A DNA stretch of 64,000 nucleotides from a virus: positions 32,001 through 96,000 of IMG/VR virus record IMGVR_UViG_3300021185_003284; one strand, written 5' to 3'. The position numbers and the translations under genes are program-made. The notes beneath the pieces were generated by a model. That model was not told the DNA's origin and made no database searches. It saw nothing but the letters and a program-made list of their open reading frames with translations. Below, in pieces: positions 27,647-32,322 of the stretch. The stretch's first letter is position 1. Every line of letters starts with the position of its first letter.

Positions 27647-29881
27647 ATGAAAGGTACATTATTTTCAGCTGACTTTGTAAAAGACGGAAACGGCGATAGT
27701 AAACTAATCGAAATCAACACTGATACAGCTTGTATCGCAGGATTAGCTTCTAACATCGACTTTACTGATCTTTACTCAGTTTTAGCTACAAACACAATCA
27801 CAGACCTACAGGTAATCTATAAAGAATTTCAAGAGCCAATCTTAGATAGACTTAAAGCTCAGAAACCTGAGGGAGTAACAATCACCGAACATAAGGAAAT
27901 ACACTCTTCTATATATCCAACTTCTATAGCAGACGATGCTACTAAGTTTATATTGAGATTAGCTTATGACGAAAATGCATTATTAGATGCCATTTACGCT
28001 AAAAATGATGCAAACTTACATGGTTTGTTCGGAGCACAAGGACCAGCATCAGCATCACTTGTAGTATCTGCTAAACAGTCAGCAGATTCCTCTAACCTTA
28101 ATTACGTATTAAACGGACCAACAGAACCAGATTTTGCTGTTAAGCCTAAAGTTCCTACTAAATCAGGAATTGACTTTTATAAGCTAGGAGGTTCAACAGG
28201 ATCTATTGAAGACAGGATAAACGAATTTACTGCTTCTATTGATTCAGGCGTTAATGTAATTACAAACTACGTTAGTGATGCAACAGATACAGCTAAGTCA
28301 GTAAGATCATATCAAATCGTATATGGAGCTGATTTAGATATCACTTGGTTAGGTGCTTATACTCTTGATGCTTTATTTACTCATACTTTAAGTTTAGTAT
28401 ACGATGATAATAAAGTAGTTAATAAATTAGCTAACAAGCATTACTATGAATTTGCTACTAATGACATCTCAGATAACGAAGGTGTTTATTATGAGGCTAA
28501 AATTAAGAAAGAAGATGGTAACTACGATGTAGCGGAAGATGCAGTAATAGGTACATTATATGATTCTTATTATGTAAGTGGATCGCCGATGACTGATAAC
28601 AGTCTTATATTAGACTCATGGTCTTTTGCTGGAGATACTCTACCTTCTGGTTCATATAGTACATCATCATCTTTACAGTCAAACACTTCAGTCACAATGG
28701 GAGATAATTCATTAAGAAGAATTACTCTTGATGACGGACAAACAGTACTATTAGGAGGAGCTAACAGAGCATTAGTACATGATAATGTTAATAATGAAAC
28801 TTCTTACTTAAGAGCTAGAGATATTAAAGCTGGATTCAAATTATTTGATGAAAACGGAGCTAGTAAAGGAGTTACTGCACATGATATAATCATATTAGAT
28901 AACGACTCAGATTCTAAAATTATAGAATTAGGAGTAGAGGATGTAGATAACTATGTTGTAAGTGGGTCTAATACTATTATTCACAACGCACCTTGTTTCA
29001 TTGCCGGAACTAAAGTTAATATGGAAGACGGTTCAATGAAGAATATTGAAGACGTTAAAGAAGGAGATCAAGTATGTTGTTGGGACTTTGAAATAAATGG
29101 TTTCTCAAATGAGAAAGTATTAATAACTACTGAAACAGAAGATCAGAAAGTAGTACAGATAACATTTAAATGCTTCGGTAATGATCTAGATATATATGCA
29201 ACTCCAGACCATCCATTCTTTGTAGAAGGTGGTAAAGGTTGGGCATGTCAAGATCCAGAATTACTTAAAGAAAAGACTGGAATGGAAGCTGCTCTATTAG
29301 ATGCAGGAGATAGTATACTGACAGGTAAGGAAGGAGAAACTTCTATTGTTACAGGAATTACTTCTTGTGACTGGACAGCGACAGTATATAACTTAGATAA
29401 CGTATTCAAATATAATAACTACTTTATATATGGAATGTTAGTACACAACAGATTTATCTTTTCTTGTCATACTTATGATAGTAAAGTAGAAATGGCTGAT
29501 GGTACTCACAAAGCTATAGGAGAAGTAAAAGTTGGAGATAAAGTAAAATCTATCAAAGACGGAATCGTAACAGAAGGTACTGTTACTGATCATTTAATTC
29601 ACGTTACTAACGATGTAATGAGAACAATCAAAACTACTAATGGATATACAGAAATCAATCACCCAATCTTAGTTGACGGTGAGTGGGTAGCTGCTAAAGA
29701 ATTAGGAGAAGTAGAAAGTGTATTTGTTGATAACTTCTATAACTTAGAAATTGACGGAAACATTTCTGAAAGTGATCATAACTATATCGTTGACGGAATG
29801 GTATCATCAGGATTAGGAGACAGCAAAGAGCTTAATGCTAAATATCAGAGACAACCTAAACAATTAACTAAACACTTATAA
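27647..29881 (+). CDS. Circularly permuted ATP-grasp-like domain fused to three tandem Hint (intein-like) domains
   Basis: N-term SADF...G..KLIEINT and FAVKP; Hint1 G279-N447 (ends IIHN), Hint2 C450-N601 (CFIAGT, TPDHPF, LVHN), Hint3 from C607 (CHTYDS, NHPI, ends GMVSSG). Confidence 0.85.
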   Translation: MKGTLFSADFVKDGNGDSKLIEINTDTACIAGLASNIDFTDLYSVLATNTITDLQVIYKEFQEPILDRLKAQKPEGVTITEHKEIHSSIYPTSIADDATKFILRLAYDENALLDAIYAKNDANLHGLFGAQGPASASLVVSAKQSADSSNLNYVLNGPTEPDFAVKPKVPTKSGIDFYKLGGSTGSIEDRINEFTASIDSGVNVITNYVSDATDTAKSVRSYQIVYGADLDITWLGAYTLDALFTHTLSLVYDDNKVVNKLANKHYYEFATNDISDNEGVYYEAKIKKEDGNYDVAEDAVIGTLYDSYYVSGSPMTDNSLILDSWSFAGDTLPSGSYSTSSSLQSNTSVTMGDNSLRRITLDDGQTVLLGGANRALVHDNVNNETSYLRARDIKAGFKLFDENGASKGVTAHDIIILDNDSDSKIIELGVEDVDNYVVSGSNTIIHNAPCFIAGTKVNMEDGSMKNIEDVKEGDQVCCWDFEINGFSNEKVLITTETEDQKVVQITFKCFGNDLDIYATPDHPFFVEGGKGWACQDPELLKEKTGMEAALLDAGDSILTGKEGETSIVTGITSCDWTATVYNLDNVFKYNNYFIYGMLVHNRFIFSCHTYDSKVEMADGTHKAIGEVKVGDKVKSIKDGIVTEGTVTDHLIHVTNDVMRTIKTTNGYTEINHPILVDGEWVAAKELGEVESVFVDNFYNLEIDGNISESDHNYIVDGMVSSGLGDSKELNAKYQRQPKQLTKHL

Positions 29882-29883
29882 TC

Positions 29884-30021
29884 ATGCCAGAAATATATAA
29901 AACAATCTCACTAGCAGATTACGGAAACAGAAATGCAACGGCTTTGACTGCTGACGAACAAACAGATGTAAGAGCAACTGTTACTAAGTTCATCGAACTT
30001 TTCAAAGCAGAACATTTATAA
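29884..30021 (+). CDS. 45-aa small protein (not in ORF track)
   Basis: Hand translation MPEIYKTISLADYGNRNATALTADEQTDVRATVTKFIELFKAEHL*; starts 2 nt after the Hint gene stop and ends 9 nt before the next ATG. Confidence 0.75.
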   Translation: MPEIYKTISLADYGNRNATALTADEQTDVRATVTKFIELFKAEHL

Positions 30022-30573: not shown

Positions 30574-31121
30574 TGAAACCTAATTTTAAACATTATGGTT
30601 CTATAAATGTAGCTCCTTTTCTTTCTGCTTTGGAAGCTATCAAACCTCAAGACTGGAGTAAATATACCTACCGTCAAGACTTATTTCCTATGCATAACAA
30701 AACTCAAACTATACCAGTACTATATGATACAGACTACGAAATAGGAGTAAGTAAAAAATCATCTTTTTACAAAATATTTGAAAGTTCAATAGAGCATGCA
30801 ACTAAAAAGATATCTGAGTTAACCAAATCTAACTGCTCTATAATAAGATTTATTATTACTAACCTTCCAGCTAATACAGTAGTCGATGAGCATAGAGATA
30901 AAGCAAATAGTTTTAAACTTTATAATAGAGTACATATACCTTTAATTACTAATGATAAAGTTCTTTTCACAGTAGGAGAAGAAACAATCAATATGCCTGT
31001 AGGAGAAATGTATGAAATAAACAACAATGATCAACTTCATGGAGTAGTAAATAGCAGTAACCAAGACAGGCTACATATTATTTTAGATTGGTATGATTAT
31101 ACTAAAAGAACAGCCATATGA
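30573..31121 (+). CDS. Aspartyl/asparaginyl beta-hydroxylase-like 2OG-Fe(II) oxygenase
   Basis: HRD, RVHIPLITN, GEMYEINN, H.V.N....RLHIILD. Confidence 0.85.
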   Translation: MKPNFKHYGSINVAPFLSALEAIKPQDWSKYTYRQDLFPMHNKTQTIPVLYDTDYEIGVSKKSSFYKIFESSIEHATKKISELTKSNCSIIRFIITNLPANTVVDEHRDKANSFKLYNRVHIPLITNDKVLFTVGEETINMPVGEMYEINNNDQLHGVVNSSNQDRLHIILDWYDYTKRTAI

Positions 31122-31609
31122 AAAATATACTAATAATAGCATTACCAAGATCAGGAGGAACTTCTATTATGCATCAGTTAGCTGAAAAGCATAATTTAAA
31201 AGCAAGATTTGAACCTGAATTAACTCAATGGCCAGTAGCACCTAAAGACGACGTTACCAAAGTTATTGTTGATAGATTCAGTATGGTAGATATTTTTTCT
31301 ATAGCTGAAAATTACGATAATATTATATTGCATAGCAGACATGATATAGAATCTACAGCAGAATCTTTAGCTACAATGCTTCATCACTGGGGAGATGAAA
31401 GTCATGCTGAGAAACCATGGCATGCTGATTTACTCAAAGAAGTACCGCAGTGGTATTTAGAGCAAACTAACCATAGAATAGTACATTGTCAATTACTAAT
31501 GCATGTATTAAGTGACGAACTTAAAGTACCTATTCAATATTATGAAGATCTATTTGACCTTAATTCAAAAGAAAGATTAAGAAAAGATTTAGATAGAACA
31601 CTGTTATGA
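31118..31609 (+). CDS. Sulfotransferase-like (P-loop) protein
   Basis: IALPRSGGTSI (PAPS 5'-phosphosulfate-binding loop), FEP, YYEDLF. Confidence 0.7.
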   Translation: MKNILIIALPRSGGTSIMHQLAEKHNLKARFEPELTQWPVAPKDDVTKVIVDRFSMVDIFSIAENYDNIILHSRHDIESTAESLATMLHHWGDESHAEKPWHADLLKEVPQWYLEQTNHRIVHCQLLMHVLSDELKVPIQYYEDLFDLNSKERLRKDLDRTLL

Positions 31610-32322
31610 TAAAAATTATATGGACATACGATAAAAATGTATTTCACGATGAGGGTACCATTAAAAATAATAAAGCTTACTATAAAAGATCTATTATAGA
31701 TGCTAAAATATTTGGACATCCAACAGAAATGTACTCTAATGATAGAGATTTTGAACACCTAGTAGATACTTTTCATTATGTAGATACACCAGTAATGTTC
31801 TGGGATGAATTTAAATCATTTCCTCTTCATGATAATAAAAGTGATTTTCTACTATCAGATGGTGATATAATTTGGCACCAAGGCTTCAAAGTAAATAAAA
31901 ATGTTGATGTTTTAATTGATAGTTATGAAGACTTTAATTGGAAATCACTTTACGAAATAGATGTTAATACATTATCTTATTTAGAAATTAATAAGGTTAT
32001 TCCGGAATGGGATGGTAAGAAGAGAGCAGCCTTTTGTACAGGTATACTAAGCTTCAATAATAAAGAATATCAAGCACTTTATTTAGATAGGTATATAAAA
32101 TTTAAAGCATTTGTAGAAAGGTATAGGAATATGCTAGACGTCAGTAAATGTACAGCAATAGGAGCACAGTACCTATTAGCTACTATAGCAGATGTTAAAG
32201 GATATTCTCATTACGCTTACTCTAACAAAGTGAGAGAGAATAATGGCATCTACACACACTACTCAGGCAAGAAGAAACATACCGATAGTTTTCTTCCTCT
32301 TACTAAAAAACATCTACTTTAG
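31606..32322 (+). CDS. Putative GT-A fold nucleotide-diphospho-sugar transferase
   Basis: LSDGDII (DXD), CTGIL, AQYLL, YTHYSG.KK. Confidence 0.55.
   Translation: MIKIIWTYDKNVFHDEGTIKNNKAYYKRSIIDAKIFGHPTEMYSNDRDFEHLVDTFHYVDTPVMFWDEFKSFPLHDNKSDFLLSDGDIIWHQGFKVNKNVDVLIDSYEDFNWKSLYEIDVNTLSYLEINKVIPEWDGKKRAAFCTGILSFNNKEYQALYLDRYIKFKAFVERYRNMLDVSKCTAIGAQYLLATIADVKGYSHYAYSNKVRENNGIYTHYSGKKKHTDSFLPLTKKHLL

Follow-up and report, generated by a model that had tools for sequence, protein, structure and literature searches.

The 744-residue protein P0001, which is carried by an uncultured marine T4-like phage, may well supply the large chain of a phage enzyme built from two proteins, an enzyme that dismantles itself after translation and has a cargo slot behind each of its His-Asn pairs, a reading that we hold tentatively. 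It is encoded by an intact open reading frame on the plus strand at positions 27647..29881 (stop codon included) of the window, the whole stretch of 64,000 nucleotides that was analysed, and is composed of four parts: a permuted ATP-grasp-fold domain, Hint1, Hint2, and Hint3 with a tail of 22 residues. All residues quoted in the original prediction for this protein are found in the translation, namely G279, GGAN at 370-373, H446-N447, AP and C450, followed by T519-P-D-H522, H600-N601, R602-FIFS, C607, N-H672-P-I and the ending GMVSSG722 ahead of the tail. A homologue search yielded more than 800 full-length homologues, and in the family alignment the N-terminus is near-invariant from Met1 on (MKGTLFSADF).

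Residues 1-278 (27647..28480, plus strand) are assigned to a circularly permuted ATP-grasp-fold domain by the AF2 model, Foldseek, VIA and the conserved residues. Foldseek aligns the model (pLDDT 95.5) with glutathione synthetase (GS), YjfC/YgiC and GspS at E values of 1e-6 to 1e-3 (best probability 1.00), and the top 30 or more matches are all GS, GspS, YgiC or CP-ATP-grasp proteins. VIA gives Z scores of 9.5-7.5 across 200-219 residues, for which unrelated best matches typically reach 7-8, and the TM values of the fold matches are just 0.4-0.5. Canonical ATP-grasps (RimK, LysX, GshB, Ddl) align with their residues 1 to about 200-240 only to model positions ~50-278; GS, GspS and YgiC align to the model from residue 1 to about 275. 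The E-x-N segment stands ahead of the equivalents of the N-terminal and central domains, which is the order of eukaryotic GS. D9, E22, N24 and R220 are invariant across the family, K166 of the VKP motif is nearly invariant, and K59 and K179 are also conserved; the acidic residue, E-x-N, the Lys of the VKP strand and the Arg are candidate Mg/ATP-binding residues. The spacing of D9 and E22 is 13, like that of D257 and E270 in DdlB. Pfam has no family at E<=1 over residues 1-278, including any ATP-grasp or CP_ATPgrasp model, the domain profile finds chance matches only among PDB sequences, and a Foldseek search of the BFVD viral models returns none at E<=0.001; the putative ATP-grasp identity is one of fold and not of a sequence-level match. 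The original prediction had read this region as a circularly permuted ATP-grasp, and the fold that AF2 and Foldseek return for it, the permuted order and the conserved residues bear this out. Enzymes of the GS/GspS/YgiC class are carboxylate-amine ligases acting on peptides. Eukaryotic glutathione synthetase, GspS/YgiC/YjfC and CP-ATP-grasp proteins (PDB 2hgs, 8fbz, 2io7, 7uka, 3n6x) share with residues 1-278 the permuted strand order and the E-x-N near the N-terminus; unlike them, the phage domain is without detectable sequence similarity, much smaller (278 residues), and predicted to have an extra chain of 45 residues.

Hint1 (residues 279-447; 28481..28987, plus strand) contains Gly279 in the place of Cys1, lacks the block-B His and ends in His446-Asn447. 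Although it is not detected by Pfam, it is a Hint domain, because hhalign aligns its profile nearly end to end with that of Hint2 (probability 96.8%, E 2e-10) and because Foldseek matches its AF2 model (pLDDT 96.4) to BIL domains, Hedgehog HhC and inteins (E 4e-8 to 1e-5, probability 1.00, TMt 0.75-0.85), the closest being Tetrahymena BIL2 and the BIL of C. thermocellum. In the hhalign alignment G370-G371-A372 face T519-P520-D521 of Hint2 with a gap opposite H522, which N373 would face in an ungapped alignment; a His at the aligned block-B position occurs in 0 family members. Both the N-terminal Cys/Ser nucleophile and the block-B TxxH are therefore absent from a domain that retains the terminal His-Asn. 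As had been proposed, the first Hint always lacks Cys1: Gly is found in 172 of 172 distinct copies, and the terminal HN in 171-172, being kept even where relatives possess Hint1 alone with a tail of 4-10 residues. The domain also carries a conserved insertion (SGSP..LPSGSY.TSS; residues ~309-345).

Hint2 (residues 450-601; 28994..29449, plus strand), delimited by Pfam and conservation, is BIL-A/intein-like, with Cys450, T519..H522 and His600-Asn601. Its best Pfam match is PT-HINT (PF07591; 6e-18, 65.8 bits, residues 464-601), and Intein_splicing and Hint are matched as well. Hint2-type domains (222 distinct copies) contain Cys1 without exception, T..H in 220-221 and HN in 221-222 copies. They share Cys1, TxxH and His-Asn with class 1 inteins and lack the +1 nucleophile and a religated C-extein: Cys or Ser never follows (0/222), Thr does so in 2/222 copies, the residue in P0001 is Arg, and what comes after the domain is another Hint or 1-13 residues. 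As P0001 contains no Cys, Ser or Thr at +1, canonical splicing should be impossible. By its residues, the 152-residue domain fits an A-type BIL, with Cys1, His-Asn, a non-nucleophilic +1 residue, no endonuclease and a variable region. The BIL of C. thermocellum (PDB 2lwy) and BIL2 of Tetrahymena BUBL1 (PDB 6tmm, 6y75) are likewise small, have Cys1 and His-Asn, and lie within variable regions of proteins, with neither an endonuclease nor a +1 nucleophile. Canonical mobile inteins were considered and rejected, since an extein, an endonuclease and a +1 nucleophile are all missing. Pretoxin-HINT (PF07591) resembles Hint2 as its best Pfam match and as a Hint that frees a variable C-terminal cargo, whereas P0001 has no toxin, secretion/trafficking domain or immunity gene, and its Hints are arranged in tandem with complementary defects. 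A polymorphic toxin was rejected on the same lines, since toxin domain and immunity gene are missing and only Hints and the 22-residue tail follow.

Hint3 (residues 607-722; 29465..29812, plus strand) is Hedgehog/Vint-like and ends in Ser721-Gly722 without Asn. It is recognised by Pfam as Vint (2e-16; 60.6 bits, cut-off 27; residues 606-724) and aligns with Hint2 in hhalign at 98.6%. Cys1 (Cys607 in P0001), the block-B His (His672) and the Ser-Gly ending are each present in 98/98 distinct copies; the Thr of TxxH has been lost, and the HN at 711-712 belongs to the block-F HNF motif and is not a terminal His-Asn. With Cys1 and block-B His and no C-terminal Asn, which is the Hedgehog/Vint combination, only an N-terminal thioester would be possible. 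The Hedgehog junction is Gly-Cys-Phe. Hedgehog Hog and Vint domains (PF01079, PF14623; PDB 1at0) have in common with Hint3 a Cys1 that follows a small residue and precedes Phe, the block-B His and the missing C-terminal Asn. Unlike them, Hint3 lacks a sterol-recognition region, in whose place a conserved 22-residue tail of other sequence is found (residues 723-744; 29813..29878, plus strand; LGD(N/S)xELNxKYQRQ...KHL); its upstream "signal" is a pentapeptide and the host a bacterium without sterols. In other phage contigs, Hint3 with its tail is also located at the end of unrelated virion (structural) proteins. The expectation that the last Hint always lacks Asn holds for the Hint3 subfamily and fails for another one, in which the last domain of many relatives is a complete one of the Hint2 type and the ending is HN-Lys.

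Across the family, the array was compared in about 260 relatives from ocean viromes. The number of Hints per protein ranges from 1 to 4 and the linkers vary too, as had been anticipated, and the N-terminal domain, Hint1 and the small partner are the sole constant parts. The three Hints had been claimed to possess complementary catalytic sets with losses tied to position; this stood, in that the losses are position-specific and nearly invariant family-wide, which argues for selection rather than decay. In the alignments, the pattern of catalytic residues in Hint1, Hint2 and Hint3 is far beyond chance. Identity is 33% among the Hint copies inside one protein and 58% between the terminal copy and the terminal copies of other proteins; judged by these values, the additional Hints are paralogues that arose long ago and are specific to their position. 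The divergences of Hint3 and the N-terminal domain show a weak rank correlation (0.19), and pairwise-identity correlations between domains are too saturated to decide on module exchange.

No part of the protein varies more, as far as sequence comparison goes, than the peptides between the Hints, which are at the same time constrained in composition, with a basic first residue, many Phe, Trp, Gly and Pro and almost no acidic residues. Linker 1 (AP, residues 448-449; 28988..28993, plus strand) has almost no information content; Ala occupies +1 in 109/172 Hint1 copies, and in 23/172 the linker is missing, with Cys at +1. Linker 2 (RFIFS, residues 602-606; 29450..29464, plus strand) has Arg at +1 and a small residue before Cys, and in relatives can be as short as one Arg or Lys, or 2 residues. 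Linkers after Hint2 are enriched in Phe (3.6x), Trp (3.2x), Pro (2.8x) and Gly (2.2x), and Asp, Glu, Asn and His are depleted to 0.1x. In 121/144 internal copies such a linker opens with Arg or Lys, and the position ahead of Cys is usually taken by a small residue. In one clade, no 10-column window varies more than the linker, at 32% identity compared with 73% elsewhere. Among distant relatives a homologous 6-Cys module is located directly after the HN of Hint1, either as a free tail (13 cluster representatives) or bracketed between this HN and Cys1 of Hint2 (6 cluster representatives); a scan of viral contigs with the relative P0224, which has a Cys-rich tail, gave no match. The constrained linkers and the 6-Cys module in the same slot lend partial support to the idea of a peptide product. 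The bias in composition could instead reflect what the active sites of the Hints need in their flanks, and since linkers of 0-1 or 2 residues occur, being a product cannot be the universal function of a linker.

The second protein of the proposed enzyme is encoded by a 45-residue open reading frame (29884..30021, plus strand) that is tightly spaced, starting 2 nt past the P0001 stop; this conserved gene did not figure in the original prediction. In 34 related viral loci the gene is immediately followed, or slightly overlapped at its end, by a homologue. Complex prediction for P0001 and the 45-residue protein gave a score of 0.89, with 0.02 for the best of 3 controls; the mark set for this score was reached by 58/80 solved complexes and 2/110 mismatched pairs. 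Across three runs at least 96% of the contacts agree, and the partner has a pLDDT of at least 90. In the model, the partner touches only the constant part of P0001: it packs on the back of the ATP-grasp sheet, bridges this domain and Hint1, and has nearly all of its residues buried against the enzyme. It is thus predicted to be a small subunit that clamps the ATP-grasp domain to Hint1. A free RiPP precursor was rejected for this open reading frame, as its almost completely buried residues in the model better fit a subunit; it might still act as a LysW-type carrier.

Ocean viromes commonly contain the family, with more than 800 proteins and 55 IMG/VR loci, and the genomic context of the relatives is drawn solely from IMG/VR loci. 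PHROGs holds no family for P0001, a tblastn search of 50,697 deposited phage genomes revealed no relative of the family, the sole matches being those of mycobacteriophage inteins to Hint2 (35-41% identity across 80-120 residues), and megablast with 20 kb of the region gave no match. Nothing usable came from the named clusters of the ESM Atlas (best score 0.78), and a literature search found no description of the family. The neighbours of the P0001 gene are the 45-residue partner gene and 2OG oxygenases; no export, immunity or receptor gene that would suggest a use of a freed peptide is located near it.

We infer all cleavage, thioester and ligase chemistry of P0001 from its residues and from the established chemistry of inteins, BIL and Hedgehog domains. 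The ATP-grasp domain is joined to Hint1 without a cleavable junction (Gly279). Asn447 and Asn601 would cyclise and thereby cut the chain behind each His-Asn, and Cys450 and Cys607 would convert the Pro449-Cys450 and Ser606-Cys607 peptide bonds to thioesters. The expected products are ATP-grasp-Hint1 (together with the 45-residue subunit), free Hint2, Hint3 with its tail, and the peptides AP and RFIFS, which would come off with a free amino terminus and with the carboxyl terminus activated as a thioester; this thioester would then undergo hydrolysis, cyclisation or transfer to an amine, and the ATP-grasp enzyme may ligate the freed termini or work on a separate substrate. The slot after each His-Asn would be a cargo slot, holding a cationic-hydrophobic pentapeptide here and a 6-Cys mini-module in distant relatives. 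The position-specific conservation of the residues for cutting at exactly these four junctions supports self-disassembly. Carrying cargo is the most likely role of the slot and the weakest step of the explanation, and the "peptide-thioester device" with AP and RFIFS as products is, on the residues, plausible but unproven.

The same architecture might serve merely to mature an enzyme. On this account, which we consider rather doubtful, ATP-grasp-Hint1 and its 45-residue subunit are the product, the downstream Hints act as a self-excising timer, folding aid or plug, and AP and RFIFS have no function. The constancy of N-terminal domain, Hint1 and partner, set beside Hint numbers of 1-4 and linkers of down to 0-1 residue, speaks in its favour, as does the partner's restriction to the constant part in the complex model. 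Left unexplained are the invariant Cys1 and block-B His in each added Hint, when a plug needs one cut, the acid-depleted, Phe/Trp/Gly-rich linkers, the structured 6-Cys module in the slot of relatives, and the old and distinct classes of internal and terminal Hints. These classes also bear on the very unlikely proposal that Hint2 and Hint3 are selfish mini-inteins or BILs which piled up behind an ATP-grasp-Hint1 gene and whose residue pattern ensures harmless self-removal. The resemblance of Hint2 to mycobacteriophage inteins, the varying copy number and the weak Hint3/N-domain correlation, suggestive of module exchange, are in line with it; on the other side, no homing endonuclease is present, the chain stops 1-22 residues past the last Hint and offers no extein to religate, +1 is never Cys or Ser, copies within a protein have diverged to 33% identity with the terminal ones forming an orthologous class across architectures, and Hint3, lacking Asn, cannot excise itself.

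Conjugation to other proteins is a further candidate, for which the BUBL loci of Tetrahymena provide the model: BIL domains flank a ubiquitin-like cargo there, and BIL2 transfers its N-flank onto the amine of a lysine in an ATP-free reaction (PMC8616854). In P0001 the Cys450 and Cys607 thioesters would donate the acyl group upstream of them to a Lys or other amine on a target from host or phage, so that an isopeptide forms with no need for ATP, Asn cleavage would trim the adduct, and the ATP-grasp domain would add or extend a second amide. The acyl group would be either the enzyme-Hint1-AP chain or a short peptide. We regard this as unlikely. Its appeal comes from the BILs of Tetrahymena and C. 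thermocellum as top structural matches of Hint1, from the ability of BIL2 to make a Lys isopeptide and conjugate its own N-flank to other proteins (PMC8616854), from Lys at +1 in 69/78 terminal Hint2-type domains, and from the virion structural proteins ending in Hint3 and tail, where covalent attachment would be sensible. However, Arg at +1 of P0001 is a poor nucleophile, Hint3 is without a +1 Lys, there is no candidate target, and if Asn447 cut first just a dipeptide would be left for transfer. The BUBL/BIL loci are a precedent for Hint-bracketed cargo and for handing a thioester-bound group to an amine with no ATP (PMC8616854), and as a concept the architecture can no longer be called undescribed, as the original prediction had it. 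P0001 and its relatives differ from these loci in that the cargo comprises 0-14 residues or a 6-Cys module instead of a ubiquitin-like domain, the first Hint of P0001 has lost Cys1 and block-B His, and the array is viral, fused to an ATP-grasp domain and accompanied by a 45-residue partner. The parts (ATP-grasp ligases, BIL and Hedgehog-type Hints) are known; for their fusion, the complementary disabling and the 45-residue partner no paper was found.

In the engineered IMPACT-TWIN and SICLOPPS systems, an upstream intein performs the C-terminal cut only and a downstream one forms the thioester only, so that the bracketed peptide is reactive at both ends. These man-made systems lack an ATP-grasp partner and depend for ligation on a cargo that begins with Cys, whereas the first cargo residue in the P0001 family is Ala, Arg or Lys. 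It is conceivable, if speculative and on balance improbable, that marine T4-like phages make short activated peptides in this way without a leader protease or NRPS, the Cys1-less Hint freeing the amino end and the next Hint forming the thioester, and the Hint-bracketed cargo (cationic-aromatic peptides of the RFIFS type here, 6-Cys modules in relatives) being cyclised or ligated and tailored by the ATP-grasp/45-residue enzyme and the 2OG oxygenases; if true, TWIN and SICLOPPS would have a counterpart in nature, and viruses a new way of making ribosomal peptide products. Under the self-disassembly reading, provided that the cleavages and thioesters predicted from the residues do take place, P0001 would be a natural enzyme with a built-in programme for its own disassembly that makes activated peptides. 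It would then offer ready-made pairs of C-cleaving and thioester-only Hints for protein engineering, an example of domesticated, specialised Hints for intein evolution, and a new kind of auxiliary function for phage-host biology.

Protein P0001 is encoded by an intact ORF of 744 aa (window:27647-29881, + strand) within a gene-dense, one-directional stretch of 32-35% GC in a 113-kb IMG/VR virus contig estimated to be 68% complete; the same window carries T4-type baseplate-wedge and tail-fibre genes. Full-length matches to P0001 comprise more than 800 proteins, and residues 1-278, searched against 1.8 billion representatives, gave 197 clusters, the domain beginning at residue 1 in almost all matches listed. 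Relatives are encoded in 55 IMG/VR loci and in none of the deposited phage genomes. An architecture survey with module HMMs made from the family alignment revealed an N-terminal domain and a first Hint domain (Hint1) as the constant part, behind which comes either a short tail or an array of one to three more Hints; such an array closes with Hint3 plus its tail or with a Hint2-type domain that terminates in His-Asn-Lys.

The N-terminal domain (residues 1-278), predicted originally to be a circularly permuted ATP-grasp, gave a confident AF2 model (pLDDT 95.5), for which every significant Foldseek match was an ATP-grasp ligase of the permuted class: eukaryotic glutathione synthetase (E 1e-6), YjfC, YgiC, glutathionylspermidine and trypanothione synthetases, Mfla_0391, and the E-64 amide ligase Cp1B. 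VIA-align recovered the same set with Z-scores of 9.5-7.5 over 200-219 residues. The first 200-240 residues of the canonical enzymes RimK, LysX/ArgX, GshB, and Ddl align only to model residues ~50-278, as circular permutation predicts, and the acidic/E-x-N strands carrying the metal ligands come first in P0001 (D9, E22, N24) but last in canonical ATP-grasp enzymes. TM-scores to ATP-grasp structures are just 0.4-0.5, no sequence-level link of the domain to Pfam or PDB was found, and Pfam has no match to residues 1-449. On the basis of the model, an ATP-grasp fold is very probable. Relatives down to 24% identity all retain D9, E22, N24, and R220, and nearly all of them K166, the lysine of the VKP motif; catalytic competence of the domain is predicted and appears likely.

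No PHROG family covers P0001. Within the remainder of the protein, Pfam detects PT-HINT (6e-18), Intein_splicing, and Hint at residues 450-601 (Hint2) and Vint (2e-16) at residues 606-724 (Hint3). That a further Hint precedes them at residues 279-447 is borne out by a nearly full-length match between the Hint1 and Hint2 profiles (hhalign 96.8%, E 2e-10), by a Hint1 AF2 model (pLDDT 96.4) whose best solved matches, all with probability 1.00, are BIL domains (Tetrahymena BIL2, 6y75 and 6tmm; C. thermocellum BIL, 2lwy), Hedgehog HhC (1at0), and many inteins, and by the block-B alignment, in which G370-G371-A372 of Hint1 faces T519-P520-D521 of the Hint2 TPDH motif and a gap faces H522. Hint1 also contains a conserved insertion absent from the other Hints (SGSP.TD...LPSGSY.TSS; P333, G335, and S336 invariant).

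The loss of catalytic residues is position-specific, not random, across the family, which favours the original prediction. Hint1 begins with Gly in all 172 distinct copies, has a block-B His at the position aligned to H522 in no family member, and retains His-Asn in 171-172 of them, followed by Ala in 109 and, where a linker is absent, by Cys in 23. Hint2-type domains (222 distinct copies) invariably begin with Cys and keep T..H in 220-221 and His-Asn in 221-222 copies; the next residue is Arg in 107, Lys in 89, and never Cys or Ser. For internal domains of this type (n=144), it is Arg in 101, Lys in 20, and Phe, Leu, Trp or Tyr in 20, and for terminal ones Lys in 69/78. All 98 distinct copies of Hint3 possess Cys1, the block-B His, and a terminal Ser-Gly, with Leu as the first tail residue in 97. 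Hint copies inside one protein share only 33% identity, versus 58% on average between terminal copies of different proteins, which marks them as old, specialised paralogues and argues against a recent duplication or fresh insertion.

A Hint with His-Asn that lacks Cys1 cleaves only at its C-terminus; when Cys1, block-B His, and His-Asn are all present and only the +1 nucleophile is missing, the Hint forms an N-terminal thioester and also cleaves its C-terminal junction, but does not splice canonically; and a Hint that has Cys1 and His yet lacks Asn stops at the thioester, as in Hedgehog. Because of these half-activities under established intein chemistry, P0001 would resolve into residues 1-447 (with a 45-aa subunit), Hint2, Hint3 with its tail, and two peptides, AP and RFIFS, both of which would depart as thioesters. 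Self-cutting and thioester release are predicted here from the residues that the family keeps invariant. Among described systems, the nearest precedent for this logic of Hints around a cargo and acyl transfer is the Tetrahymena BUBL locus, where BIL domains flank a ubiquitin-like cargo and BIL2 hands its N-flank over to the amine of a lysine in an ATP-free reaction (PMC8616854).

Whether the linkers are cargo can be weighed from their variation. Across the family, Hint1 is followed by an AP-like linker, by none, or by one of 3-14 residues, and a Hint2 by a linker of 1 to 14 residues; in one clade with 73% identity elsewhere, the linker is the most variable 10-column window (32%) and also varies in length. 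Linker composition is far from neutral despite this high variability: Phe (3.6x), Trp (3.2x), Pro (2.8x), and Gly (2.2x) are enriched, Asp, Glu, Asn, and His are depleted (0.1x), and the linkers open with a basic and close with a small residue. In a distant subfamily, the Hint1 His-Asn is followed by a homologous 6-Cys module (C-x2-3-C-x4-9-C-G-x-[YWF]-x-C-x2-3-C-x2-C), a C-terminal tail in 13/19 cluster representatives examined and bracketed by a Hint2 Cys1 in 6. The slot behind His-Asn can thus accommodate a genuine module, which is found both with and without a thioester-forming Hint downstream; computationally, the cargo reading has its best support here, and the linkers of zero and one residue are the best evidence against cargo as a universal function. 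The module (23-35 aa; CxxC...CG.[YWF].C...CxxC in the representative proteins P0223-P0263) may be a mini-domain that binds zinc or is held by disulfides. The residue exposed by Asn cleavage of Hint2-type domains is R, K, F, L, W or Y in 216/222 copies, a set identical to the N-terminal residues that are destabilising under the bacterial N-end rule; chance, a requirement of the mechanism, or deliberate exposure of an N-degron may explain this match.

The 45-aa partner ORF (window:29884-30021, +) begins 2 bases past the P0001 stop codon, and a homologue lies directly downstream of, or slightly overlaps, the gene end in 34 related viral loci, at any Hint number. Every homologue retains Y5 and F36, and most terminate in KH(L/T/S). 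A complex model with residues 1-449 scored 0.89, a mark attained by 58/80 solved complexes and 2/110 mismatched pairs, versus 0.02 for the best of three controls; at least 96% of contacts agreed over three runs, with a partner pLDDT of at least 90, which supports the predicted binding. In the model, the N-terminal strand of the partner pairs with Hint1 residues 411-419 and its helix contacts N-domain residues 8, 10, 20, 23, 219-225, and others. Since catalytic D9, E22, N24, and R220 are interleaved with these positions, the helix would lie against the rear of the sheet, and the partner resembles a structural subunit more than a free precursor.

Further downstream follow two 2OG-Fe(II) oxygenases, one of the P4H type (PF13640; window:30031-30573) and one resembling Asp/Asn beta-hydroxylases (PF05118, Asp/Arg beta-hydroxylase; window:30573-31121). 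Homologues of the former lie within 6 kb of the Hint gene in 38/55 loci, a raw count from which no conclusion is drawn, as several copies occur per phage. Upstream neighbours encode a RecA/KaiC-like ATPase, a DUF932 protein, a ferredoxin-reductase-type oxidoreductase, and a 148-aa ORF without any match. Three ORFs (window:27140-27586, 31118-31609, and 31606-32322) without Pfam or PHROG matches recur near the Hint gene in 3-13 of 55 related loci, sometimes on its opposite side. The window also contains two adjacent glycosyltransferase-like genes (phrog_2170; window:9249-11958) and a sole tRNA, tRNA-Met (CAT; window:38022-38095).

Hint3 with its SGLGDN..LN..Y.RQ tail also terminates large phage proteins that are unrelated and range from 327 to more than 2139 aa, forming the C-terminal ~135 aa of ORFs in other phage contigs (L044:1-6420, L045:2161-6420, L046:2158-6420, and L050-L055), some of which match the PHROG 'virion structural protein' (phrog_14478) or tail/Hoc-like families. 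On virion proteins, it looks like a Hedgehog-style C-terminal autoprocessing module. For P0001 itself, the ORF with three Hints that carry complementary catalytic residues is confirmed, and its interpretation as a natural TWIN-intein-like peptide-thioester device is supported in part only. With a putative function, P0001 represents an undescribed variant assembled from known kinds of domains.
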